Shown here one piece after another: positions 7,871 through 20,187 of a stretch of 64,000 nucleotides of DNA. Each line of letters starts with the position of its first letter. Position 1 is the first letter of the stretch. The notes below the pieces were generated by a model, which was given only the letters and a program-made list of their open reading frames with translations, made no database searches and had not been told where the DNA came from. The stretch comes from Comamonadaceae bacterium (GTDB taxonomy: Bacteria > Pseudomonadota > Gammaproteobacteria > Burkholderiales > Burkholderiaceae_C), in assembly GCA_027488215.1 (NCBI GenBank), contig JAIYCB010000050.1, forward strand, positions 5,543 through 69,542, read 5' to 3'. The position numbers and the translations under genes were made by a program.

Positions 7871-8830
7871 TCATCGTTTGTGCAGCGTGTCAGAAGGCAG
7901 TTCGCCAAAAAGGTGACGGTAGTCTTGCGCGAATTGGCTCAGGTGCCAAAAGCCCCAGTGCGAGGCAATGTCCTGGATGGTCACGCCGGGCGCGGCTTGG
8001 CGCAGGGCGCGGCGCACGCTGTTCAGGCGCAGCGAGCGCAGGTACTTGATGGGCGTGGTGCCCAGCACGTCTTGAAAGCAGTAGTTGAGCTTGCGGCGGC
8101 TGGTGCCCACACGGCTGCACACCTCGAGGATGGACAGGGGCTCGTCGGCATGGCCCAGCATCAGCTCGCAGGCGCGGTCCACCAGTTTTTTTCGCCGCTC
8201 CAGGTTGGGCAGTTCAGATGTGTCCACTTGCGGGGGGAGGGCTTCGAGCCATTCCATCAGGATTTCGTCGCGCAACTGGCGAAGGGCCTGAGGGTCGTGC
8301 TGGCGGTGCGCCAGCGCGCTGGCCTGGTCGAGCACGGTGAGCTGCAGGTCTCGCAGGCTCTGCGCTTTGATATCAGTGGTTTGCAACACCAACTGCTTTT
8401 CAAGCCAATGCGCCAAGGGCTTTTGGTACATGCGCTCCCAAAGCGGGTTGAGCAGACTGCGTTCGACCACCACCGCGATCAGCGTGAAATGGGGCGGGGT
8501 GGTCAGGTCCACCTCGTCGCCCTTGCCACACATGATGGCGTGGGCGGGCACCCGTTGGCCGTTGAAAAACAGGTCGGGTGAGTCCTGCAGCGCCATGGCA
8601 AAGCCATAAACGCTCTCATGAAGCCGACCGCGCTGGCGCAGCCCGATGCTGGTGTCCTCGCGCAACATAGTCACTTCCGGCAGCTGCACTTGGTGGATGC
8701 GCCCCTTGAACTGACCGGGTGAGAGCTGCTCGTACTGCAGCGACCAGCCTTGCTGGGCCAGGGCGTGCTGGTCCATGTCCTGGTTGTCCAGCACCTGGAC
8801 CCATGGTGTAACGGGGACGGACGAGCTCAT
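7871..8830 (-). CDS. AraC family transcriptional regulator, EutR-like
   Basis: N-terminal YEQLSPGQFKG cupin-like region; C-terminal HTH SRRKLNYCFQDVLGTTP and WGFWHLSQFAQDYRHLFGELPS; start taken at MSSSVP. Confidence 0.88.
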   Translation of the reverse strand: MSSSVPVTPWVQVLDNQDMDQHALAQQGWSLQYEQLSPGQFKGRIHQVQLPEVTMLREDTSIGLRQRGRLHESVYGFAMALQDSPDLFFNGQRVPAHAIMCGKGDEVDLTTPPHFTLIAVVVERSLLNPLWERMYQKPLAHWLEKQLVLQTTDIKAQSLRDLQLTVLDQASALAHRQHDPQALRQLRDEILMEWLEALPPQVDTSELPNLERRKKLVDRACELMLGHADEPLSILEVCSRVGTSRRKLNYCFQDVLGTTPIKYLRSLRLNSVRRALRQAAPGVTIQDIASHWGFWHLSQFAQDYRHLFGELPSDTLHKR

Positions 8831-8896
8831 CAGAGAAAGAAAATGCGGCGCAAATGCATGTCCCTGAGTGTGCCTGCTTCCGGAGCACAGGTTTTT

Positions 8897-8934
8897 TCGT
8901 GAAAACCCGGGGTCCTCGGTGCCCAAACTTGATA
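8897..8934 (+). promoter_or_regulatory. Putative AraC/XylS-type operator upstream of the GATase-P450 operon
   Basis: TCGTGAAAACCC-N11-TGCC-N6-TGATA, ending 51 bp before ATG 8986; resembles the XylS-type TGCA-N6-GGNTA half site. Confidence 0.55.
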
Positions 8935-8985
8935 GCGCTCCGTACGCCTTGTGCATAGCATGGACAACAGCTTGAAAGAGACCTG

Positions 8986-9714
8986 ATGAAACGATGCATT
9001 GCCGTTTTACTGACCAACAACGACACTTCGCCGTTTGCAGCGCACTTCCCGAACGACGGTCAAAAGGTGGTGCTGCTGCTGCAGCCTTTGCGGCCCGATT
9101 GGACTTATGAGGTCGTGTCGGTCAAGGACGGGGTGTTGCCCGCGAGCCCCGAGGCCTATGACGGCTACGTCATCACCGGCAGCCCGGCCTCGGTCAACGA
9201 CGACCGCCTGCCTTGGGTGGGGCCGCTGCTGGATTTCATCCGGGCCGTGCACGCCGCACGCCAGCCGCTGATCGGCCTGTGCTTTGGCCACCAGGCGGTA
9301 GCCCGGGCTCTGGGCGGGCAGGTGGCGCGCAACGCCGCGGGCTGGGGTCTGGGCACTGCGCCCACGCACTGGCATGCCACACGCCCTTGGATGCAGCCCG
9401 CGCAAAGCACCACCACCTTGATGGCTGCGCACAACGAGCAGGTCACCCGCATGCCCGAAGGCGCGGTCTGTCTGGGCGGCAGTGACTTTTGCCCCATCGG
9501 CTCGATGCAGATCGGCCAGCACATCTGGACCACTCAGTTCCACCCCGAGATGCCGCTGGTGTTCATGCAGGCCTTGTTGGGCTTCCTGGCCGACAAGCTC
9601 GATGCCGAAACGATGGCTCGCGCCCACGCCAGTCTGACCAACGCCGCCGATGTGCCGCTGTTTGGGCACTGGATGGCGCAATTTTTTGAACACGCAAGGA
9701 AAAACAAGCAATGA
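8986..9714 (+). CDS. Class I glutamine amidotransferase-like protein (putative gamma-glutamyl hydrolase)
   Basis: YVITGSPASV, GLCFGHQ (Cys nucleophile), TQFHPE (His-Glu); stop overlaps P450 start (ATGA). Confidence 0.9.
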   Translation: MKRCIAVLLTNNDTSPFAAHFPNDGQKVVLLLQPLRPDWTYEVVSVKDGVLPASPEAYDGYVITGSPASVNDDRLPWVGPLLDFIRAVHAARQPLIGLCFGHQAVARALGGQVARNAAGWGLGTAPTHWHATRPWMQPAQSTTTLMAAHNEQVTRMPEGAVCLGGSDFCPIGSMQIGQHIWTTQFHPEMPLVFMQALLGFLADKLDAETMARAHASLTNAADVPLFGHWMAQFFEHARKNKQ

Positions 9715-10976
9715 CCGTCTGGCATCCCAACGACGATGGCCACGCCGACATCTCCAGACACGACAGCTATCTGAACGGCACGCCGCACAACACCTTCAAG
9801 CGTTTGCGCGACGAAGACCCCATGGCCTGGTGCGACTGGGCTGAGGGCAAGGGCTTCTGGTCGGTCACGCGCCATGCCGATATTTTGGAGCTCAACCGCA
9901 ACCACCAGCGCCTCAGTTCTGCACAGGGCATCCGCATGGAAGACCAGTCGCACGAGGAGTACATGGCGCGGCGGACTTTTCAAGAGACCGACCCGCCCGA
10001 ACACACCCGCACCCGCATGCTGGTGGCCAAGGCCTTTTCCAAGCCCATGATGGCGCTGTACGAAGACCAGATCCGCGAGCTGTGTGTGGGCATCCTCGAT
10101 CAGGCCCTGGCGCTGGGCGAGTTTGACGCCACGCACCAGATCGCCCGCCAGCTGCCCATGCGCATGCTCGGGCGCATCGCGGGCCTGCCTGAGGAGGACC
10201 TGGATTGGCTGGTGGACAAGGGCGATGCACTCATGGCCAACACCGACAGCGACTTCACCAGCCATGTGGTCGACAAAATGGACACCGAGGCCTACCGCTT
10301 CATGCCCTTTCGCTCGCCCGCCGGGGCCGACCTGTTCGACTACGCGGCCCAGCTGATGGAACGCAAGCGCAGCGCGGGCGACACCAGCGGCGTGCTGCAC
10401 CTGATCACCCAGCCCGATGCCCAGGGCCATGTGATCAGCGACACCGAGTTCCGCAACTTCTTTTGTCTGCTGGTGGCCGCGGGCAACGACACCACACGCT
10501 ATTCGATCGCCGCCGCCTTGCATGCGCTGGCCAACCAGCCGGGGCTGATGCAGCAACTCAAGGCGGTGCAGGGCGAAGCGGCTTGGGAGGGCGTGGCCGA
10601 CGAGTTCATCCGCTGGGCTTCACCCGCCACACACTTTCGCCGCACCGCGACCGAAGACTTTGAGTACCACGGCAAACATGTCAAAGCGGGCGACAAGGTG
10701 CTGCTCTGGTTCATCTCTGGCAACCGCGACGAGCGGGCTTTTGACCGGCCGTTCACCGTTGATCTGAGCCGGGGCGTGAACCGCCACCTGGCGTTTGGGC
10801 AGGGCGGGGCGCATGCCTGCTTGGGCATGTGGCTGGCGCGGCTGGAGTTGCGCGTGTTGATGCAAGAGCTGATCAAGCGCGTCGAGCGCATCGAGCAAAC
10901 GGGCGAGCACGCCTTTTTGCGATCCAACTTTGTCTCGGGCATCAAACGTTTGCCCGTGCGCATGCACCTGATCTGA
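9711..10976 (+). CDS. Cytochrome P450
   Basis: I-helix AAGNDTT, ExxR (EFIR), heme ligand FGQGGAHACLG. Confidence 0.96.
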   Translation: MTVWHPNDDGHADISRHDSYLNGTPHNTFKRLRDEDPMAWCDWAEGKGFWSVTRHADILELNRNHQRLSSAQGIRMEDQSHEEYMARRTFQETDPPEHTRTRMLVAKAFSKPMMALYEDQIRELCVGILDQALALGEFDATHQIARQLPMRMLGRIAGLPEEDLDWLVDKGDALMANTDSDFTSHVVDKMDTEAYRFMPFRSPAGADLFDYAAQLMERKRSAGDTSGVLHLITQPDAQGHVISDTEFRNFFCLLVAAGNDTTRYSIAAALHALANQPGLMQQLKAVQGEAAWEGVADEFIRWASPATHFRRTATEDFEYHGKHVKAGDKVLLWFISGNRDERAFDRPFTVDLSRGVNRHLAFGQGGAHACLGMWLARLELRVLMQELIKRVERIEQTGEHAFLRSNFVSGIKRLPVRMHLI

Positions 10977-10987
10977 AAGGAACCACC

Positions 10988-12280
10988 ATGTCGAATGTTC
11001 AAGAACGCCTGCGGGTGCTGTTTTGTGACCACCTGGCCATTGCGCGTGGCAAATACGTCACGCTCCAACCCGGGCAGGGCGGCGGTGCCCGTTTTTGCCG
11101 GGGCACTTTTGGCGTCACTTACGAAAAAGAGCTGATCCCAGCTCCGGGCGCGATGGTCATGGAAGGCCTGCCCGACATGGAGGCCGTCTACACCCCCGAG
11201 GACATCCGCCCCGGCTGGCAGCCGTTCACCCAGGTCGCGGTGGGTGACCTCAAGGCCAACGACGGCACCCCTCTGCCCATGTGCGGGCGCAGTGCCTTGA
11301 AGCGCGCCGTGGCCGACTGGCAAGCCACGGGCTACGACCCGATGGTGGGCATTGAGCTCGAAGCCTTTGCCTTCCAGATCGAGCCCGACGGCTCTCTCAA
11401 ACCTTACGACACGCCTGCAGCCCATGTGTATTCAACCGGTCCATTCTCCGACCCCCGGGGCTTCACCGACGCCCTGTGGGAAAAAGCCACGGCCGCGGGC
11501 TTTCGCATCGACAGCATGAACACCGAATACGACGCGCCGCAGTTCGAGTTCACGCTCACCTACGACCGCGCCGTCAAGGCGGTGGACGACATTTTTTTGT
11601 TCCGTCTGCTGGCGCGTGAGGTGGCTTTTCAGCACGGCATCGTGTTGACCTTCATGCCCAAACCGATCCTCACGGTGGGCGGCAGCGGCGTGCACATCAA
11701 TTTCAGCCTGCGCGACGACCAAGGCCACAACGCGATCTCGGGCGGGCACGACGCCAGCCAGTTCAACGCCTTGACGCTGGGCTGCACCGCCGGGCTGATG
11801 CACCACCACCAGGCGCTGGCGGGTTTATTGGCTCCGTGCGCCAATTCTTACCAACGCCTGCAACCGGCCAGCCTATCGGGTTTCTGGCAAAACTGGGCGG
11901 TGGACCACCGGGGCGTCACGGTGCGCCTGTCGGCCGAAAGCGGCCCCGGCGCGCGCATCGAGCACCGCATGGGCGACGCGGCGGCCAACCCCTACACCCA
12001 CACCGCCGCCGTGCTGCAGGCCGCCCGTCTGGGCGTGGCCAACGCCTATTCACTGCAGCCCATCGAGACCGGCGATTGCCTGGAAAACAAGGACGCCACC
12101 CAAAGCGTGCCGGGCACCTTGGCGGGTGCCTTAGACGCGCTCGAAGCCGACACGGCGCTCACGCAAGCGCTGGGCGAAGGCTTGGTGGCCAACCATGTGG
12201 GCATCAAGCGCCACGAGATCGAACGCACCGCAGGCCTCGAAGGCGACGCGCTGCGCGATCACTACATCCGATTTATCTGA
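10988..12280 (+). CDS. Glutamine synthetase-like protein (putative gamma-glutamyl-amine ligase)
   Basis: GIELEAF, EYDAPQFE, TFMPKP...GSGVHINFSL, RIEHRMGDAAANPY; start MSNVQE after AAGGA RBS. Confidence 0.9.
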   Translation: MSNVQERLRVLFCDHLAIARGKYVTLQPGQGGGARFCRGTFGVTYEKELIPAPGAMVMEGLPDMEAVYTPEDIRPGWQPFTQVAVGDLKANDGTPLPMCGRSALKRAVADWQATGYDPMVGIELEAFAFQIEPDGSLKPYDTPAAHVYSTGPFSDPRGFTDALWEKATAAGFRIDSMNTEYDAPQFEFTLTYDRAVKAVDDIFLFRLLAREVAFQHGIVLTFMPKPILTVGGSGVHINFSLRDDQGHNAISGGHDASQFNALTLGCTAGLMHHHQALAGLLAPCANSYQRLQPASLSGFWQNWAVDHRGVTVRLSAESGPGARIEHRMGDAAANPYTHTAAVLQAARLGVANAYSLQPIETGDCLENKDATQSVPGTLAGALDALEADTALTQALGEGLVANHVGIKRHEIERTAGLEGDALRDHYIRFI

Positions 12281-12298
12281 TCTGAAAGAACCCACCCC

Positions 12299-12613
12299 AT
12301 GCCCCAAGTGCACTGGATCATGAGCAACGGCGAGCGCGTGAGCGATGACGTGAACGACGGCACCAACCTGATGGACGCCGCGCAGATGAACGGCATCCCC
12401 GGCGTGGCGGGCGAATGTGGCGGCTGCCTGTCGTGCGCCACCTGCCATGTGTATGTCGATGAAGCCTGGCTGGTCGCCTGCCCACCGATGGACGAGGTGG
12501 AAAACGCCATGCTGGACATCGTCATCGCACCCCGCCAGACGGGCAGCCGCCTGAGCTGCCAGCTGATCGCGTCGAATGCGCTCGATGGCATCGTGCTGCA
12601 CGTACCTGACTGA
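12299..12613 (+). CDS. 2Fe-2S ferredoxin, putidaredoxin/adrenodoxin type
   Basis: GECGGCLSCATCHVYV and RLSCQL cysteine pattern. Confidence 0.95.
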   Translation: MPQVHWIMSNGERVSDDVNDGTNLMDAAQMNGIPGVAGECGGCLSCATCHVYVDEAWLVACPPMDEVENAMLDIVIAPRQTGSRLSCQLIASNALDGIVLHVPD

Positions 12614-12622
12614 AAGAGATTG

Positions 12623-14107
12623 ATGAAACAAGAACAGATCGACGCGCTGCGCCACCTGCCTATCTCTGATCAGGGTCTGCTGATCGATGGGCAATGGACG
12701 GCTGCGGCATCCGGCCAGAACTTGCCTGTGGTTTCACCCATCGACGGACAACAGCTCTGCACCATCGCCGCTGCCGGACAAACGGATGTCGACCGCGCTG
12801 TGCAGGCGGCCCGGCGCACTTTTGAGCAAGGCGTGTGGTCGCGCATGGCGCCTGCCGAGCGCAAGAAGGTGCTGCACCGCATTGCCGATCGCATTGAGGC
12901 CCACCACGCCGAGCTGGCGGTGCTGGGTGTGCGCGACAACGGCACCGAAATTGCCATGGCCTGGAAGGCCGAGCCGGGCAGCGCGGCGGGCACCTTCCGC
13001 TACTACGCCGAGTGCGTGGACAAGATCAATGGCGAGATCGCACCGACCCCCGAGGGCACCTTGGGGCTGATCCACAAGGAGCCGGTGGGCGTGGTCGCGG
13101 CCATCGTGCCGTGGAACTTTCCTTTGATGATCGGCGCCTGGAAGATCGCCCCTGCGCTGGCGGCAGGCAACTCGTTGGTGCTCAAACCCTCCGAAGACGC
13201 GTCGCTTTCTTTGTTGCGTCTCGCACAGCTGTGTTTGGATGCGGGCTTGCCACCGGGCGTGCTCCATGTGGTCACGGGCACGGGCGCAGAGGCAGGTGAA
13301 GCGTTGGCGCGGCACATGGACGTGGACATCCTCACTTTCACTGGCTCCGGCCCGGTGGGGCGCCTGTTGCTCAAGGCTTCGGCTGAATCCAACCTCAAGC
13401 GGGTGTATCTGGAGCTGGGGGGCAAGTCGCCCAACATCGTTTTTGATGATGCGCCCGATCTGGCGCAGGCCGCCAAAGTCTCGGCCATGGGCATCTTCCG
13501 CAACAGCGGGCAGGTGTGTGTGGCGGGCTCGCGCTTGCTGGTGCAGCGCTCGGTGCATGACGAATTTGTGGAGCGTCTGCACAAGATCGCGGCCAACCTG
13601 CGCGTGGGTGACCCGCTGGATGTGACGACCGAGATCGGTGCGGTGAGCAGCGCCCGGCAATTGGCCAAAAATTTGGCTGCGGTGCAGACCGCGCAGCACC
13701 AGGGCGCTCGCCTGCGCGTGGGCGGCGGGGTTTTGCAACCCGTGGCGGGCGGAAGTTACATGGCACCTGCTTTGTTTGACCGTGTGACGCCCGACATGAC
13801 CTTGGCACGCGAAGAAGTCTTTGGCCCGGTGCTGGCGGTCTTGCCCTTTGACGACGAGGCCGAGGCGGTGCGCCTGGCCAACGATTCGACCTATGGCCTG
13901 GCGTCTGCCGTGTGGACCGGCAGCCTCTCGCGTGCGCATCGCATGGTGCGCGCCATCAAGGCTGGGGTGGTGCACGTCAACACCTACGGCGGCCCTGATG
14001 TGACGGTGCCGCTGGGCGGCGTGCGGCAGTCGGGCAATGGGCACGACAAATCGATGCACGCCATGGACAAATACCTGGACCTGAAGACCGCCTGGATTCA
14101 GCTCTGA
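12623..14107 (+). CDS. Aldehyde dehydrogenase, PuuC-like
   Basis: IVPWNFPL, FTGSGPVG, LELGGKSP, NSGQVCVAG (catalytic Cys), EEVFGPV. Confidence 0.93.
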   Translation: MKQEQIDALRHLPISDQGLLIDGQWTAAASGQNLPVVSPIDGQQLCTIAAAGQTDVDRAVQAARRTFEQGVWSRMAPAERKKVLHRIADRIEAHHAELAVLGVRDNGTEIAMAWKAEPGSAAGTFRYYAECVDKINGEIAPTPEGTLGLIHKEPVGVVAAIVPWNFPLMIGAWKIAPALAAGNSLVLKPSEDASLSLLRLAQLCLDAGLPPGVLHVVTGTGAEAGEALARHMDVDILTFTGSGPVGRLLLKASAESNLKRVYLELGGKSPNIVFDDAPDLAQAAKVSAMGIFRNSGQVCVAGSRLLVQRSVHDEFVERLHKIAANLRVGDPLDVTTEIGAVSSARQLAKNLAAVQTAQHQGARLRVGGGVLQPVAGGSYMAPALFDRVTPDMTLAREEVFGPVLAVLPFDDEAEAVRLANDSTYGLASAVWTGSLSRAHRMVRAIKAGVVHVNTYGGPDVTVPLGGVRQSGNGHDKSMHAMDKYLDLKTAWIQL

Positions 14108-14124
14108 AAAACCAAGAGAACACC

Positions 14125-15489
14125 ATGAACAACGACCAACTCAAGGCCGACAATGCCCAATACCTGTGGCACCCCATGGCCCACCCGGGGGCGATGAAAA
14201 AATCCACGCCCGACATCATCGCCAAGGGCGAAGGCTGCTGGATCTGGGACGTGGACGGCCACAAGATGCTCGATGGCGTGGGGGGCCTGTGGGCCTGTAA
14301 TCTGGGTCACAGCAACAAGCCGGTGCGCGACGCCATCGTGGCGCAGATGGACGAGCTGCCCTTTTACAACGTGTTTCGCGGCACCACCCATGTGCGGGCG
14401 ATCGAATTGTCCAAGCGATTGGTCCAATTGATGCAGCCCGAGGTCGTGGCCACGGTGATGTTTTCTACTGGCGGCTCTGACGCGGTGGAAGGTGCGCTGA
14501 AAGTGGCGCGCCAGTACTGGAAGCTCAAGGGCCAGGCAGACCGCTTCAAGTTCATCAGCCTGCGCCAGGGCTACCACGGCGTGCACTTTGGCGGCATGAG
14601 CGTGAACGGCAACACCAACTTCCGCCGCGCCTACGAGCCCTTGCTGCCCGGGTGCTTTCACATCGACACGCCCTGGGCTTATCACAACCCCTACACAGAT
14701 GACCCGATCCGCTTGGGCGAAATCTGCGCCGAGCTGCTGGAGCGCGAAATCGTGTTCCAGGGGCCGGACACGGTGGCAGCCTTCATCGCCGAGCCGGTGC
14801 AGGGTGCGGGCGGCGTGATCGTGCCGCCCCCCAACTACTGGCCGCTGGTGCGCCAGATTTGCGACAAGTACGGCGTGCTGCTGATTGCCGACGAGGTGGT
14901 GACCGGTTTTGGCCGCAGTGGCGAGCTGTTCGGCACGCGCCTGTGGGGCGTGAATGCTGACATGTGGTGCCTGGCCAAGGGCATTTCTTCGGGCTACATC
15001 CCCTTGGGGGCCACGGCCATCAACCGCCGCATTGCCGAGGTGTTTGACGCAGACACCACAGGCACGGCCTCGGTCTCGCACGGCTACACCTACAGCGCCC
15101 ACCCGATCGCAGCCGCTGCGGCGCTGGCCACACTCGACCAGATCGAGGCGCTGGACATTCCGGGCAACGCCGCCCGCGTGGGTGCGCACCTTCAGACCCG
15201 CTTGCGCAAACTGGTGGATACCTGCAGCTTTGTGGGCGACGTGCGGGGCGTGGGCCTGATGCTGGGCATCGAGATGGTGAGCGACAAGGCTAAACGCACG
15301 CCCATGGCCCGCAGCAGCGACATCCCGGCGCGGGTGGCCAAGGCAGCCTACAAGGCGGGCCTGATGGTGCGCATTTCCGGGCCCAACCTGATCCTGTCAC
15401 CGCCGCTGGTCATCACCCGTGAGGAGGTGGACTTCATGTGCGATGTGCTCGAAGGTGCGTTTGCCGCGGTGCAGGAGGGCCGGGCATGA
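14125..15489 (+). CDS. Class III (omega-amine) PLP aminotransferase
   Basis: GGLWACNLGH, GYHGVHFG, FIAEPVQGAGG, DEVVTGFGRSG, LAKGI (PLP Lys), HGYTYSAHP. Confidence 0.94.
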   Translation: MNNDQLKADNAQYLWHPMAHPGAMKKSTPDIIAKGEGCWIWDVDGHKMLDGVGGLWACNLGHSNKPVRDAIVAQMDELPFYNVFRGTTHVRAIELSKRLVQLMQPEVVATVMFSTGGSDAVEGALKVARQYWKLKGQADRFKFISLRQGYHGVHFGGMSVNGNTNFRRAYEPLLPGCFHIDTPWAYHNPYTDDPIRLGEICAELLEREIVFQGPDTVAAFIAEPVQGAGGVIVPPPNYWPLVRQICDKYGVLLIADEVVTGFGRSGELFGTRLWGVNADMWCLAKGISSGYIPLGATAINRRIAEVFDADTTGTASVSHGYTYSAHPIAAAAALATLDQIEALDIPGNAARVGAHLQTRLRKLVDTCSFVGDVRGVGLMLGIEMVSDKAKRTPMARSSDIPARVAKAAYKAGLMVRISGPNLILSPPLVITREEVDFMCDVLEGAFAAVQEGRA

Positions 15490-16745
15490 CGAGCCCTGTC
15501 ATCTTGATCGTGGGCACCGTCGACACCAAGAGCGACGAGATCGGCTTCATGCGCGAGCAGGTGCAAGCCGCAGGCGGGCAGGCGCTGATCATGGACGTGG
15601 GGGTGCTGGCCAAAGGGCAGGTGACGCCCGATGTGGCCAACACCGATGTGGCCCAAGCCGCAGGCGTAACGCTGCAGCAGGTGATGGACAGCGGCGACGA
15701 AAACAGCGCCATGGCCTTGATGGCCCAAGGTGCCAGCGTTCTGGCCGCCGAGATGCACCGGGAAGGGCAGATCGACGGCTTGCTGGTGCTGGGCGGCACC
15801 ATGGGCACCGACCTGGCGCTCGACGTGGCCAGCAGCTTGCCGCTGGGCGTGCCCAAGGTGGTGTTGTCCACGGTGGCGTTTTCGCCCCTGTTGCCGCCCG
15901 AGCGCATGCCGCCCGATTTGATGATGGTGCTGTGGGCAGGCGGTCTGTACGGCCTCAACAGCCTGTGCCAGTCTGCCTTGGCGCAAGCCGCAGGGGCAGT
16001 GGTGGGGGCTTGCCGCGTGGCGCGCGTGCCGCGCTTTGAACGGCCGGTGGTGGGCATGACCTCATTGGGTTCGAGCTGTCTGAAATACATGGTGCAACTC
16101 AAACCCGAACTCGATCAACGTGGTTTTGATTTGGCGGTCTTCCACACCACAGGCATGGGGGGCCGGGCTTTTGAATCGCTGGCCGCGCAAGGCCAGTTCG
16201 CCTGCGTGATGGACTTCAGCCTGCAGGAGCTGGTCAACCAGATGGGCGGCTCGGTGGTGAGTGCCGGGCCTGACCGTTTGATGGGTGCTGGCCTGAAAGG
16301 CGTACCTATGATCGTCGCCCCCGGGGCCACCGATCTGGTGGACTACCCAGCCTGGGGCGATATGCCCAGCCGCTTTGCCGGGCGGCCCTCGCATGACCAC
16401 AACCGTTTGATCGCCTCGGTGGGCATCGACGCCGACATGCGCCGCGAATTCGCTCGCGAGATGGCCAGCCGCTTGCGCAAGGCCAAAGGCCCGGTGCACC
16501 TGGTGCTGCCTTTGCAAGGCATCGAAGAGTGGGACCGACCCGGTGCGCCGATGCACGATGCCGAAGGCCTGGCTGCACTCATGGACGAATGCGGCCAATG
16601 CGATTGGGGCGCGGCCGAGGTCTCGCGCATCGACGCCCACATCAACGACGCGGCGTTTGTGCAGCAGGTGCTTTCGGTGTTCGACGATTGGCTGGCCAAA
16701 GGGCTGGTGGTGTCTGCTGCGGGCATGAAAGTGACCCATGTCTGA
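15486..16745 (+). CDS. Tm-1-like ATP-binding domain protein (UPF0261)
   Basis: IVGTVDTKSDE N-terminal motif, GGTMGT, LPLGVPKVVLST, FHTTGMGGRAFE, IDAHIND; ATG overlaps aminotransferase stop. Confidence 0.85.
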   Translation: MTSPVILIVGTVDTKSDEIGFMREQVQAAGGQALIMDVGVLAKGQVTPDVANTDVAQAAGVTLQQVMDSGDENSAMALMAQGASVLAAEMHREGQIDGLLVLGGTMGTDLALDVASSLPLGVPKVVLSTVAFSPLLPPERMPPDLMMVLWAGGLYGLNSLCQSALAQAAGAVVGACRVARVPRFERPVVGMTSLGSSCLKYMVQLKPELDQRGFDLAVFHTTGMGGRAFESLAAQGQFACVMDFSLQELVNQMGGSVVSAGPDRLMGAGLKGVPMIVAPGATDLVDYPAWGDMPSRFAGRPSHDHNRLIASVGIDADMRREFAREMASRLRKAKGPVHLVLPLQGIEEWDRPGAPMHDAEGLAALMDECGQCDWGAAEVSRIDAHINDAAFVQQVLSVFDDWLAKGLVVSAAGMKVTHV

Positions 16746-17406
16746 TGCGTTGCGGCCCGAAGACAAGGCCCTGATTCTGGACTTTGGCGGCGTCATCAGC
16801 CGCACCCTGTTTGAAACCCATGCCTTGAGCGAGACCGCTTTGGGCTTGGCTGCCGGAACGCTGACCTGGCAAGGCCCGTTTGCGCCTGACACCGATGCGC
16901 TGTGGCAAGCCATGCAGGCCGATCAGATCAGTGAACGCGATTACTGGATGCAGCGCACCCGCGAGGTCGGACGTTTGTTGGGTGAAGACTGGACCGAGAT
17001 GCAAACCTTTGTGCAGCGCGCTCGGGGGGCTGATGTTGCGGCTGTGATCCGGCCTGAGGCGGTGGCGGCCATTCACCAGGCCAAGGCGCTGGGCTACAAG
17101 TTGGGCATTTTGTCCAACGAGCTGGATCTGTTTTATGGCGCGGATTTTCGCGAGCGTTTGCCCTTGCTCCAACAGTTTGACGTGATCGTGGACGCCACCT
17201 ACACTCAGATCCTCAAACCTGATCCACGCGCTTACCAAGCTTGTTTGCAAGCCTTGGGGGTGCGGGCCGAGCATGCGACTTTTGTTGACGACCAACTGCG
17301 TAACGTGGCGGGGGCACAGCGCTGCGGCCTGCCGGTGGTGCATTTGGATGTTTGCCAACCCGGTGTCGGTTTTGCAAAAGCCCTGCAGATGCTGGCGGGG
17401 TTGTGA
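16738..17406 (+). CDS. HAD-IA family hydrolase/phosphatase
   Basis: ILDFGGV (motif I variant), LSNE (II), KPDPRAY (III), FVDD (IV). Confidence 0.85.
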   Translation: MSDALRPEDKALILDFGGVISRTLFETHALSETALGLAAGTLTWQGPFAPDTDALWQAMQADQISERDYWMQRTREVGRLLGEDWTEMQTFVQRARGADVAAVIRPEAVAAIHQAKALGYKLGILSNELDLFYGADFRERLPLLQQFDVIVDATYTQILKPDPRAYQACLQALGVRAEHATFVDDQLRNVAGAQRCGLPVVHLDVCQPGVGFAKALQMLAGL

Positions 17407-17569: not shown

Positions 17570-18565
17570 ATGAACGATTGGAACCCATCGGGCCAACGCC
17601 GCGATTTTTTGAAGGCCATGGCCGCCGTGACGGCTACCTTGCCCCTCTGGGTACAAGCCCAAAGCAACTGGCCCTCCAAATCGGTGACCATGGTCGTGCC
17701 TTTCCCTGCTGGTGGCGGTACCGATGCGTTTGCAAGGCCATTGTCTGCCCAGTTTGCCAAGCTGACGGGCAAACAACTCATCATTGACAACCGGGGAGGC
17801 GCGGGCGGCACTTTAGGCGCTGGCGTGGCCGCCAAATCGGCGCCCGATGGCTACAACTTGTTCATGGGCGCGGTACACCACACCATTGCGCCCAGCATGT
17901 ACCCCAAGCTCGATTACGACCTGGAGCGTGACCTGACTCCCCTGATTTTGGTAGCCAATGTGCCCCAAGTGCTGGTGGTCAACCCGAGGAAAGTGCAGGT
18001 GGCGGACTTCAAGGCTTTCCTGGAAATGGTCAAGAAGAACCCTGGGCGCCTGAATTACGGTTCAGCAGGCGGTGGCACTTCTCATCATTTGGCAGGAGAA
18101 TTGTTCAAGCTGCAGACCCAAACCTTCATTACCCATATCCCCTACCGCGGCGCTGGCCCAGCCCTTCAAGATCTGATTGCCGGCAATGTGGACATGATGT
18201 TCGATGGCTTGGGTTCCTCAGCTGCGCACATCAAAGGTGGTCGCATCAAGGCCCTCATGGTTTCAGGCGCTAAACGCAACGCGGCTTTCCCGGATGTGCC
18301 GTGTTCTGCCGAGTTGGGTTTGCCCGATTACACCGTGTCCACTTGGTATGGCGTTTGGGCACCTAAAGGCACGCCCGCTGACGCCCAGACTCGGGCCATC
18401 GAAGAGATTCGCCGTGCCTGCCAGACCGATGAGGCCAAAGCCGTCTGGGCCAACCAAGGAGCGGAATTCCCCAACCTCACCACCTCCCAATTTGAAGCTT
18501 TCATCAAGAAAGAACTGGCCAAGTGGTCACAAGTGGTCAAGGCCTCGGGGGCCAAGCTCGACTGA
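17570..18565 (+). CDS. Bug/TctC tripartite tricarboxylate transporter substrate-binding protein
   Basis: Tat-like RRDFLK signal, VVPFPAGGGTD, DNRGGAGG, IPYRGAGPALQDL. Confidence 0.92.
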   Translation: MNDWNPSGQRRDFLKAMAAVTATLPLWVQAQSNWPSKSVTMVVPFPAGGGTDAFARPLSAQFAKLTGKQLIIDNRGGAGGTLGAGVAAKSAPDGYNLFMGAVHHTIAPSMYPKLDYDLERDLTPLILVANVPQVLVVNPRKVQVADFKAFLEMVKKNPGRLNYGSAGGGTSHHLAGELFKLQTQTFITHIPYRGAGPALQDLIAGNVDMMFDGLGSSAAHIKGGRIKALMVSGAKRNAAFPDVPCSAELGLPDYTVSTWYGVWAPKGTPADAQTRAIEEIRRACQTDEAKAVWANQGAEFPNLTTSQFEAFIKKELAKWSQVVKASGAKLD

Positions 18566-18584
18566 TTTTGGCACTGCATGCATC

Positions 18585-18607
18585 GGGCCTGTGCGCAGGC
18601 CCTTTTT
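18585..18607 (+). terminator. Intrinsic terminator-like hairpin between Bug gene and matB
   Basis: GGGCCTG-tgcg-CAGGCCC-TTTTT. Confidence 0.65.
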
Positions 18608-18627
18608 CACGCTTTCAATTTGAAACC

Positions 18628-20187
18628 ATGACCCACTCCAACTTGTTTTCCGCGCTTCGTGCGGCCTTTCCTGCCGATCTGAGCTCCATAGCCGTCGAAA
18701 CCGATGAAGGCCTGTTGTACAGCTGGCAGGACCTGGACCGCGCCACGGCCATGATGGCCAATTTGCTGCAGTCGCTGGATTTGCCTGAAGGCAGTCGGGT
18801 GGCGGTACAGGTCGAAAAATCGGTCGAAGCGATGATGCTGTACTTGGCCACACTCCGTGCTGGCTATGTCTTTTTGCCGCTGAACACCGCTTACCAAAGC
18901 GCTGAGATCGAGTACTTCATTGGCAATGCCGAGCCTGCTGTGGTGGTGTGCAGCCCTGCCAATTTTGGCTGGGTCAGCAAGATCGCTTTCAAGGCCGGCA
19001 CGCAGCATGTGTTTACCTTGGGCGATGACCGCACGGGCAGCTTGCTCGAGCGAGCCGCCCACCACAGTGACCAACACAAGCCCGTGCCGTGCCAAGCCGA
19101 TGACCTGGCCGCCATTTTGTACACCAGTGGTACTACGGGGCGCAGCAAGGGGGCCATGCTCACGCACGGCAACATGCTGAGCAATGCTGTCACGCTCAAG
19201 GATTACTGGGGCTGGACGGCGACCGGAGGGCCTACAGGCCAGGGCGATGTGCTCATCCATGCCTTGCCCATCTTTCATGTGCACGGTTTGTTTGTGGCCA
19301 TCCATGGCGCGTTGATCAACGGCAGCAAGATGATCTGGATGGCCAAGTTCGAGCCTAAGCGAGCCATTGCGCACATGAGTCGTGCCACCGTTTTCATGGG
19401 GGTGCCTACGCTGTATGTGCGCATGCTGGCAGAACCGACGCTGAACAAAGAGGCTGTCAAGAACATGCGCTTGTTCATCGCTGGGTCAGCCCCCTTGCTG
19501 ATCGAGACCTTCACCGAATGGCAGCAGCGCACCGGGCACACCATTTTGGAGCGCTATGGGATGAGCGAGACCGCCATGTTGACCTCCAACCCCTATGCAG
19601 CGGACAAGCGCTATGCGAAGCAGTCCGAGCGTCGTGGTGGCACGGTGGGTTTTCCCTTGCCGGGCGTGTCTTTGCGGGTGCGTGGGGACGATGGGCAAGA
19701 CATGCCCCTGGGCGAGATTGGCGGTATTCAGGTCAAGGGTCCGAATGTCTTCAAAGGCTACTGGCGCATGCCCGAGAAAACGGCTGAAGAATTCACGGCT
19801 GACGGCTTTTTCAAGACGGGCGATGTGGGCAAGGTCGATGAACGCGGCTACGTGACCATCGTGGGTCGCAGCAAAGACCTCATCATCAGCGGCGGCTACA
19901 ACGTCTATCCTGCAGAGATCGAAGGCTATATCAACGAGATGCCTGGCGTGACCGAAAGCGCTGTGATTGGTGTGCCCCATCCCGACTTTGGCGAGGTGGG
20001 CGTGGCAGTGGTCATTGCCAAACCAGGCGCCAACCTGAAGCCAGAAGCCATCCTGGCCGATCTCAAAGCCAAGCTGGCCAACTTCAAAATTCCAAAGCGT
20101 TGTTTTGTCGTGGCCGAGTTGCCGCGCAACACCATGGGCAAAGTGCAGAAAAACCTGCTGCGCGAGCAATACAAAAACCTGTTTTAG
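18628..20187 (+). CDS. matB: Malonyl-CoA synthetase (MatB-like acyl-CoA ligase)
   Basis: YLATLRAGYVFLPLNTAY, YTSGTTGRSKGAMLTH, HALPIFHVHGLFVA, ILERYGMSET, LPRNTMGKVQK. Confidence 0.85.
   Translation: MTHSNLFSALRAAFPADLSSIAVETDEGLLYSWQDLDRATAMMANLLQSLDLPEGSRVAVQVEKSVEAMMLYLATLRAGYVFLPLNTAYQSAEIEYFIGNAEPAVVVCSPANFGWVSKIAFKAGTQHVFTLGDDRTGSLLERAAHHSDQHKPVPCQADDLAAILYTSGTTGRSKGAMLTHGNMLSNAVTLKDYWGWTATGGPTGQGDVLIHALPIFHVHGLFVAIHGALINGSKMIWMAKFEPKRAIAHMSRATVFMGVPTLYVRMLAEPTLNKEAVKNMRLFIAGSAPLLIETFTEWQQRTGHTILERYGMSETAMLTSNPYAADKRYAKQSERRGGTVGFPLPGVSLRVRGDDGQDMPLGEIGGIQVKGPNVFKGYWRMPEKTAEEFTADGFFKTGDVGKVDERGYVTIVGRSKDLIISGGYNVYPAEIEGYINEMPGVTESAVIGVPHPDFGEVGVAVVIAKPGANLKPEAILADLKAKLANFKIPKRCFVVAELPRNTMGKVQKNLLREQYKNLF

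Follow-up and report, generated by a model that had tools for sequence, protein, structure and literature searches.

A UPF0261 (Tm-1-like, ATP-binding) protein encoded at 15486-16745 on the + strand of a 64,000-nucleotide stretch from a Comamonadaceae bacterium (contig JAIYCB010000050.1; the whole stretch is called the window here) belongs to a branch of its family, delimited by the NCBIfam model NF002676, that keeps company with a class-III transaminase, an aldehyde dehydrogenase (ALDH) and a HAD-family hydrolase and is never found next to a TIM-barrel partner. Judging from its sequence and its neighbours, the gene product is very probably an enzyme that uses ATP and is linked to the breakdown of amines. 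The preliminary description of this DNA had suggested as much and had expected the context to be informative, and the link between UPF0261, HAD, transaminase and ALDH does hold down to 52% identity, through three gene orders, and with the same transaminase family (NF005683) in 11 of 11 sampled genomes that carry an NF002676 protein. More specifically, sequence, a structural model and analogy with the one characterised enzyme of the family together give about an even chance that the NF002676 protein is a stand-alone kinase for a hydroxylated amine, and the product of the overlapping HAD gene its matching phosphatase, within a transaminase/ALDH module.

The 419-residue protein matches both Pfam domains of the family (PF06792, 143.7 bits; PF23189, 203 bits; cut-offs 27) and passes the NCBIfam equivalog NF002676 (PRK02399.1-4) with 578.3 bits against a cut-off of 556, while relatives in Mesorhizobium-type loci score 639 bits. 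A profile search of its own assembly (3.07 Mb, 53 contigs, 90.5% complete) found the gene in single copy. Its ATG (15486-15488) overlaps the TGA of the transaminase gene (15487-15489) as ATGA at 15486-15489, and the HAD gene begins at an ATG at 16738, ahead of the UPF0261 stop codon (16743-16745), giving an 8 bp overlap (ATGTCTGA, 16738-16745). Both overlaps had been pointed out before and both are plain in the sequence. An AlphaFold2 model of the protein (mean predicted local distance difference test score, pLDDT, 96.5) has the two-domain fold of Tm-1 and MarK, which answers the call for a structural comparison made in the preliminary description: in Foldseek the N-terminal region of the tomato protein Tm-1 (3WRW) aligns with a TM score of 0.76-0.78 and the bacterial protein MarK (9MPY) with 0.56-0.59, and only Tm-1 and MarK chains match both domains of the model. 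By sequence the window protein scores 190.8 bits to MarK in a full-length alignment and 140 bits to Tm-1. Modelling of the UPF0261 and HAD proteins as a complex, from two alignments, yielded neither support nor a verdict, and I use it neither way.

The missing TIM-barrel gene had been presented as a peculiarity of this operon. No match to PF09370, the phosphoenolpyruvate (PEP)-hydrolase-like TIM barrel, was found in the window or anywhere in the 90.5%-complete assembly, and to that extent the statement stands; however, a census of 301 evenly drawn Pseudomonadota genomes with the profiles PF06792, PF09370 and NF002676 demonstrates that the absence is not anomalous. The census contains 24 canonical UPF0261 genes (PF06792 196-218 bits), of which 22 have a PF09370 gene within 2 kb, so the common adjacency of the two families is real, though for canonical genes only. 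In contrast, none of the 11 NF002676 genes, the window's included (PF06792 about 141-159 bits), lies next to PF09370. Five of the 11 genomes that bear them contain no PF09370 at all, and some of these are assemblies of one or two contigs. Among the PF09370-free genomes are G092 (one contig), G248 (two contigs) and G176 (six contigs), each listed as 100% complete. Where a genome holds both kinds of gene, the TIM barrel adjoins the canonical copy and never the NF002676 copy. Absence of the partner is the rule for the NF002676 lineage and not an oddity of the window operon, and to call the gene an orphan is wrong for this branch.

It might still be argued, from an assembly that is just 90.5% complete, that the protein is half of a canonical two-component Tm-1-like system whose TIM barrel is encoded in an unassembled part of the genome. 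With no PF09370 match in the assembly, with NF002676-only genomes of 100% listed completeness free of PF09370, and with the barrel always beside the other copy where both exist, I regard this as extremely unlikely, and the earlier thought that a co-regulated partner might be encoded elsewhere finds no support in the assembly or in those complete genomes. The two exceptions among the 24 canonical genes are L081 and L082. L081 (8906-11206, in G096:C10) is a 766-amino-acid open reading frame in which an ABC-transporter ATPase domain (PF00005, residues 56-197) is fused to a canonical-type UPF0261 protein (359-758), with no TIM-barrel gene beside it, and L082 (G184:C33) is likely alike. A further protein, P0169 (689 amino acids), carries UPF0261 with three PF23189 stretches (552 bits in all), a pattern that indicates internal multiplication of the C-terminal domain.

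The preliminary description also held that the domain has no assigned function in bacteria. This is outdated since 2025, when MarK (Saro_1862 of Novosphingobium aromaticivorans, PDB 9MPY) was reported to be an ATP-dependent phenol kinase (Hall et al., J Biol Chem 2025, PMC12624787). MarK, in the form with the laboratory-evolved substitution E16K, is a UPF0261 homodimer that lacks a TIM-barrel partner and phosphorylates the phenolic hydroxyls of acetovanillone and other phenolics at the expense of ATP, in an operon that also requires a carboxylase and a phosphatase (PMC12624787). E16K restores a lysine and raises activity 1600-fold, H219 hydrogen-bonds the phenolic oxygen, H304 stacks on the ring, and in Tm-1 the residue K20 contacts an ATP analogue (PMC12624787).

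Residue conservation was counted in an alignment of 101 sequences, comparing 24 NF002676-branch members with 75 other UPF0261 proteins. The window protein has D13-T14-K15 natively, each residue at least 90% conserved in the alignment, and K15 is the equivalent of both MarK K16 (the position of E16K) and Tm-1 K20. G195, H220 (MarK H219) and H305 (MarK H304) are conserved across the family. Around the acetovanillone pocket these three are kept, T196 is replaced by S, and MarK F283/I285/S346/S347/H348 become L284/D286/E347/E348/W349, the substitutions F283 to L, I285 to D and H348 to W falling at positions of the pocket itself. Read from the alignment, the hydroxyl site of MarK is retained in the window protein and its distal pocket altered. 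The alteration is a property of the branch: Asp286 is present in 24/24 branch members and in 0/75 others, as is Trp290, an extra residue relative to MarK, and Trp349 is present in 24/24 branch members compared with 6/75 others. An invariant aspartate inside an aromatic pocket would fit a ligand that bears an ammonium group, that is, a cationic amine.

These residues also bear on whether the protein is an enzyme at all. Plant Tm-1 works through ATP-bridged protein binding (as quoted in PMC12624787), and the window gene is translationally coupled to both of its neighbours, so that one could imagine a non-catalytic ATP-binding partner that regulates or scaffolds the transaminase, the ALDH or the HAD enzyme. 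The strict, branch-specific conservation of the substrate-pocket residues is, however, what one expects of an enzyme active site, and in MarK the bacterial fold is demonstrably catalytic; I consider a purely binding role very unlikely.

The reading of the protein as a kinase for hydroxylated amines draws its metabolic content from the neighbours. A tblastn census of metagenome and genome loci places ALDH, transaminase, UPF0261 and HAD genes in that order, with a divergent AraC-family gene, in about 50 species of Burkholderiales, and in every full-length locus an orthologue of the window ALDH (60-96% identity) adjoins the UPF0261 gene or lies near it. At 52-56% UPF0261 identity all four families are found together again in Alpha- and Gammaproteobacteria, making three gene orders overall. 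In Alphaproteobacteria an IclR-UPF0261-HAD-transaminase series is divergent from transporter-P450-ALDH, the closest named proteins being those of Mesorhizobium, Shinella and Pelagibacterium, and in a metagenome-assembled genome of Oceanospirillaceae a transaminase-HAD-IclR series is divergent from TctCBA-ALDH-UPF0261. Wherever the UPF0261 and HAD genes adjoin, distant loci included, their start-stop overlap (4 or 8 bp) is preserved. The window operon contains four further genes, a GATase-P450-GS-ferredoxin block described below, which is present in most Limnohabitans loci, some of which add a ferredoxin reductase and an APC permease. The window itself derives from a freshwater betaproteobacterium of Limnohabitans type. 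Many loci, including those of Casimicrobium, Steroidobacteraceae, Polaromonas and Rhodoferax, keep the core without this block. The ALDH, transaminase, UPF0261 and HAD genes are thus the real unit and the block is an optional add-on, and the view that a gamma-glutamylation/P450 operon defines the context of the UPF0261 gene has to be given up.

Several observations on the module stand by themselves. Contigs of one freshwater library recorded as metatranscriptomic (X19), 90-97% alike, span the ALDH/transaminase junction and pieces of UPF0261. As a sign of expression of the module in related populations they are weak, for they come from related strains, are contigs and not reads, and may include DNA. 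In one metagenomic lineage (L006:11949-13202, L007:1972-3225) a DAO-family FAD oxidoreductase gene directly follows the HAD gene, with a gamma-glutamyltranspeptidase nearby. In literature searches on the catabolism of tyramine and octopamine and on gamma-glutamyl-piperidide, no result named an ALDH-transaminase-UPF0261-HAD cassette, and a search for Tm-1-like ATP-binding proteins under that wording found nothing. The amine-catabolic module is apparently undescribed in the searchable literature, and a branch of MarK-family kinases with a different pocket would be a new variant.

The transaminase gene (14125-15489, +) encodes a class-III omega-transaminase of the amine:pyruvate type (PF00202, 330 bits; NF005683, 709 bits against a cut-off of 575), whose nearest solved structures are the true amine transaminases 5LH9 (513 bits) and 6S54 (504 bits). 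NF005683 occurs in 11/11 sampled NF002676 genomes, within about 7 kb of the UPF0261 gene in 10/11, and in 4/290 other genomes. The genomes stand for six genera, and the independent events behind this co-occurrence are therefore few. The genome of the window has a second NF005683-type copy elsewhere (G000:C17:11936-13264, 663 bits). I considered the adjacent class-III enzyme as a phospho-lyase acting on the product of the kinase, and dropped this candidate on account of those nearest structures and of the PRK06148-type lyases that, in relatives, come in addition.

A related explanation is that the kinase phosphorylates a hydroxyl to make it a leaving group, which a reaction of the phospho-lyase or dehydratase kind would then eliminate, with the HAD enzyme recycling only stray phospho-intermediates. 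Degradation of amino alcohols and hydroxylysine by pairs of a kinase and a class-III pyridoxal phosphate (PLP)-dependent phospho-lyase is established, as reported by Veiga-da-Cunha and colleagues in 2012. In several relatives the operon also includes genes for an APH kinase and a lyase-like protein of the PRK06148 type. Elimination chemistry is also suggested by P0121 (L064:896-3193), in which an NF002676-type UPF0261 protein (575 bits) is fused to a domain of the proline-racemase / hydroxyproline-epimerase / 3-hydroxyproline-dehydratase family. This fusion was found on one Logan contig only, and its neighbours there are an ALDH with 61% identity to that of the window, a P450, RidA and an amino-acid-type binding protein. 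However, the window transaminase groups with the amine:pyruvate transaminases and not with the PRK06148 lyase type; the lyase-type gene, where present, is additional to the NF005683 gene and has an APH kinase of its own; and a tightly coupled, highly conserved HAD enzyme is hard to square with a mere safety valve. On this evidence I judge elimination to be unlikely.

The HAD gene (16738-17406, +) encodes a HAD-IA hydrolase (PF00702/PF13419; TIGR01509, HAD-SF-IA-v3, above cut-off), a putative phosphatase whose nearest solved relative is the glucose-1-phosphatase YihX. Across 29 orthologues motifs I-IV (D15-F-G-G-V, S126, K160 and D184-D185) do not vary. The stretch between motifs I and II, residues 20-105, is highly conserved and rich in Arg and Trp, with five invariant arginines (R22, R67, R73, R96 and R105), and is taken to be the cap domain. 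Such arginines would fit an anionic phospho-acid substrate, that is, action of the HAD enzyme after the ALDH.

If the UPF0261 protein is a kinase for a hydroxylated amine, the pathway might run in four steps. The kinase would phosphorylate, at the expense of ATP, the oxygen of a hydroxyl on an amine-bearing substrate; the omega-transaminase would convert the amine of the phosphorylated compound to an aldehyde; the PuuC-like ALDH would oxidise the aldehyde to the acid; and the HAD enzyme would finally strip the phosphate. In the window, the additional genes, which resemble those of the isopropylamine (Ipu) pathway and comprise a GS-like ligase, a P450 with its ferredoxin and a GATase-like hydrolase, would supply the hydroxylated amine from an alkyl- or aryl-alkylamine. 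The recurrence beside the module of a P450, an enzyme that would generate a hydroxyl, is in favour of the kinase reading. The scheme is modelled by analogy on the kinase-then-phosphatase logic of the MarK pathway; I infer the order of the steps, the kinase activity, the phosphatase role of the HAD enzyme and the nature of the substrate. A broader proposal, which I hold tentatively and rate somewhat below an even chance, is that an NF002676 hydroxy-amine kinase and its coupled HAD enzyme constitute an undescribed strategy of Alpha-, Beta- and Gammaproteobacteria, in which hydroxylated amines, biogenic or xenobiotic, would bear a transient O-phosphate as a handle or protecting group on their way through the transaminase and the ALDH to acids.

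A number of points weigh against the kinase-phosphatase reading. Transamination and oxidation chemically need no phosphorylation, and any purpose of the phosphate, be it handle, protection or trapping, is conjecture. The module is not uniform, for the branch members L068, L069 and L071 have no HAD gene nearby, and in G092 the transaminase gene is far from the NF002676 gene. The position two residues after the nucleophilic aspartate of the HAD enzyme (Asp+2) is a glycine, so the usual general acid is missing and other hydrolase chemistries are possible; YihX is, I take it, likewise without this general acid. The two P450 types found beside the module, CYP125/124/153-like in the window and GcoA-like (that is, like an aromatic O-demethylase, 324 bits) in the IclR-type loci, point to different substrate classes. 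None of HpaB, HpaD, HmgA and PcaH, markers of the 4-hydroxyphenylacetate, homogentisate and protocatechuate 3,4-cleavage routes, scored over the cut-off in the genome of the window, where one LigB-family extradiol dioxygenase was found (contig C17, 53146-53976, the contig that also carries the second transaminase copy). This result speaks against catabolism of tyramine-type carbon here and weakens the case for phenolic amines. Finally, about 25 Å separate the ATP site from the substrate site in the MarK crystal (PMC12624787), which leaves the catalytic mechanism of the family unsettled.

What, then, might the substrate be? Phenolic amines and aliphatic amino alcohols are the two candidates. 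Phenolic amines are favoured by the precedent of MarK, by the extra kinase/lyase pair of some relatives, which would suit beta-hydroxylated phenethylamines, and by the P450s of the GcoA-like type, which point to guaiacyl-type aromatic amines. For the window itself aliphatic amino alcohols would be favoured, by the Ipu-like P450, by the Asp at a position that lines the ring in MarK and by the lack of phenolic-pathway markers in the genome.

The operon in the window reads, on the + strand, GATase-like, P450, GS-like ligase, 2Fe-2S ferredoxin, PuuC-like ALDH, NF005683 transaminase, UPF0261 and HAD. Divergent from it lies an AraC-family regulator gene (7871-8956, -; PF12833/PF00165), weakly EutR-like (167 bits to the EutR model, below its cut-off of 319), which is kept upstream of the core in loci both with and without the P450 module. 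The first gene of the operon (8986-9714, +; PF00117) encodes a class-I glutamine amidotransferase (GATase)-like protein, a candidate gamma-glutamyl-amide hydrolase of the IpuF/PuuD type. It is followed by a cytochrome P450 (9711-10976, +; PF00067) of the CYP125/124/153-like alkyl-hydroxylase type, with 306 bits to CYP125MRCA and 190-217 bits to CYP268/126/124/153. Next comes the glutamine synthetase (GS)-like ligase (10988-12280, +; PF00120, 238 bits), a candidate gamma-glutamyl-amide synthetase that falls below the cut-offs for GS-III and gamma-glutamylputrescine synthetase and whose true start is the ATG at 10988, with AGGA upstream. A 2Fe-2S ferredoxin for the P450 (12299-12613, +; PF00111) completes the block. 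The ALDH (12620-14107, +; PF00171, 553 bits), the first gene of the four-gene core, is NAD(P)-dependent and PuuC-like, PuuC being its best NCBIfam match (561 bits, below cut-off). Thus constituted, the P450 part of the operon (8986-12613) has neither a ferredoxin reductase nor a permease to go with its ferredoxin, whereas in some sister loci (e.g. L020:3862-7120) genes for a reductase (Pyr_redox_2 and Reductase_C) and an APC permease separate the GS-like gene from the ALDH gene. The NCBIfam models put no name on these permeases, and therefore the transporter gives no clue to the substrate.

Upstream of the operon is an amidase gene, and the amidase and the P450 have a regulatory region in common. 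This arrangement gives some colour to the idea that the group activated by the UPF0261 protein with ATP is no hydroxyl but, say, a carboxylate or the oxygen of a lactam or enol, and that the HAD enzyme hydrolyses the activated intermediate. A cyclic amide that arises once the P450 has oxidised a cyclic amine could, for instance, be opened in this way. In the catabolism of caprolactam, ATP-dependent opening of the lactam precedes an omega-transaminase, and motif I of the HAD enzyme, as noted, lacks the Asp+2 typical of phosphomonoesterases. Against this, the sole characterised member of the family phosphorylates a hydroxyl, the histidine that contacts the hydroxyl is conserved in the window protein, and many core loci have no P450 or amidase at all. 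I find activation of a non-hydroxyl group distinctly unlikely, and phosphorylation of a hydroxylated amine is still the reading that I prefer. Downstream of the HAD gene (17570-20187) lie, in this order, a TctC binding protein, a strong terminator-like hairpin (18585-18602) and a MatB-like malonyl-CoA synthetase, which look like separate units. In many sister Limnohabitans two more genes, for a GntR regulator and a malonyl-CoA decarboxylase, intervene between HAD and TctC (L009:11978-14199); the window has neither.

UPF0261 is a large family of bacteria, archaea, fungi and plants with a single characterised enzyme, and the NF002676 branch offers a second entry point to it. If the proposed activity is correct, it would be the second assigned to UPF0261 and the first outside lignin-derived aromatics; and if the bracketing of the pathway by phosphate is real, it would be a new motif in amine catabolism and would explain why abundant lake bacteria retain these genes. 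The fixed enzymatic neighbours would narrow the substrate to amines that bear a hydroxyl, and the pocket has a recognisable signature. Cultured carriers (Limnohabitans, Mesorhizobium) make genetics and assays straightforward. Furthermore, the division of the family into partner-dependent and partner-independent lineages bears on the role of the TIM-barrel half of Tm-1-like proteins.

Among known systems MarK is the closest in kind. Like the window protein it has the two-domain UPF0261 fold and stands alone without a TIM-barrel partner; the two share the D-T-K motif of the ATP site (with Lys through E16K in MarK), the Gly/His pair at the hydroxyl and the stacking His; and both are encoded in a catabolic operon that also holds a phosphatase gene, the HAD gene being the putative one here. 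The differences are that the two proteins are only about 30% identical in the Foldseek structural alignment, that the Lys is native in the window protein whereas wild-type MarK has Glu, and that MarK is partnered by a biotin-dependent carboxylase and the window gene by the transaminase, ALDH and HAD genes. No biotin carboxylase of the acvCDE type was found among the genes at 6.1-20.2 kb of the window or among the annotated genes of related loci. The N-terminal region of Tm-1 (PDB 3WRV/3WRW/3WRX/3WRY) is the best structural match, at 26-27% sequence identity, but Tm-1, unlike the window protein, is fused to a TIM-barrel domain, acts through binding of a viral replicase and is not known to be catalytic. 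The canonical UPF0261/PF09370 pairs have the Pfam domains of the window protein and are set apart from it by the adjacent partner, as counted above, and by higher PF06792 scores (about 196-218 bits, with 146 for the window protein in this comparison).

The pair formed by an APH-family amino-alcohol or hydroxylysine kinase and a class-III phospho-lyase resembles the present proposal in that phosphorylation of a hydroxyl on an amine comes first, ahead of the loss of nitrogen and of oxidation by an ALDH, and in some relatives the pair shares an operon with the module. In the window, however, the kinase candidate has the unrelated UPF0261 fold, the PLP enzyme is of the true omega-transaminase type and not a PRK06148 lyase, and a dedicated HAD enzyme is present. 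The ALDH and the transaminase resemble the PuuC- and PuuE-type steps of the Puu pathway of putrescine degradation, to which, to my knowledge, no UPF0261 or HAD protein belongs. Finally, the Ipu pathway of isopropylamine degradation (Pseudomonas sp. KIE171 and Arthrobacter aurescens TC1) proceeds by hydroxylation of a gamma-glutamyl-alkylamide, after which hydrolysis yields an amino alcohol (PMC6776027); the accessible part of that paper mentions neither a UPF0261 nor a HAD protein for the Ipu clusters. The upstream genes of the window match this scheme, with gamma-glutamylation by the GS-like ligase, hydroxylation by the P450 and ferredoxin, and release of the amino alcohol by the GATase-like hydrolase as the predicted steps, and they stand in the window as an optional extension of the ALDH-transaminase-UPF0261-HAD core.

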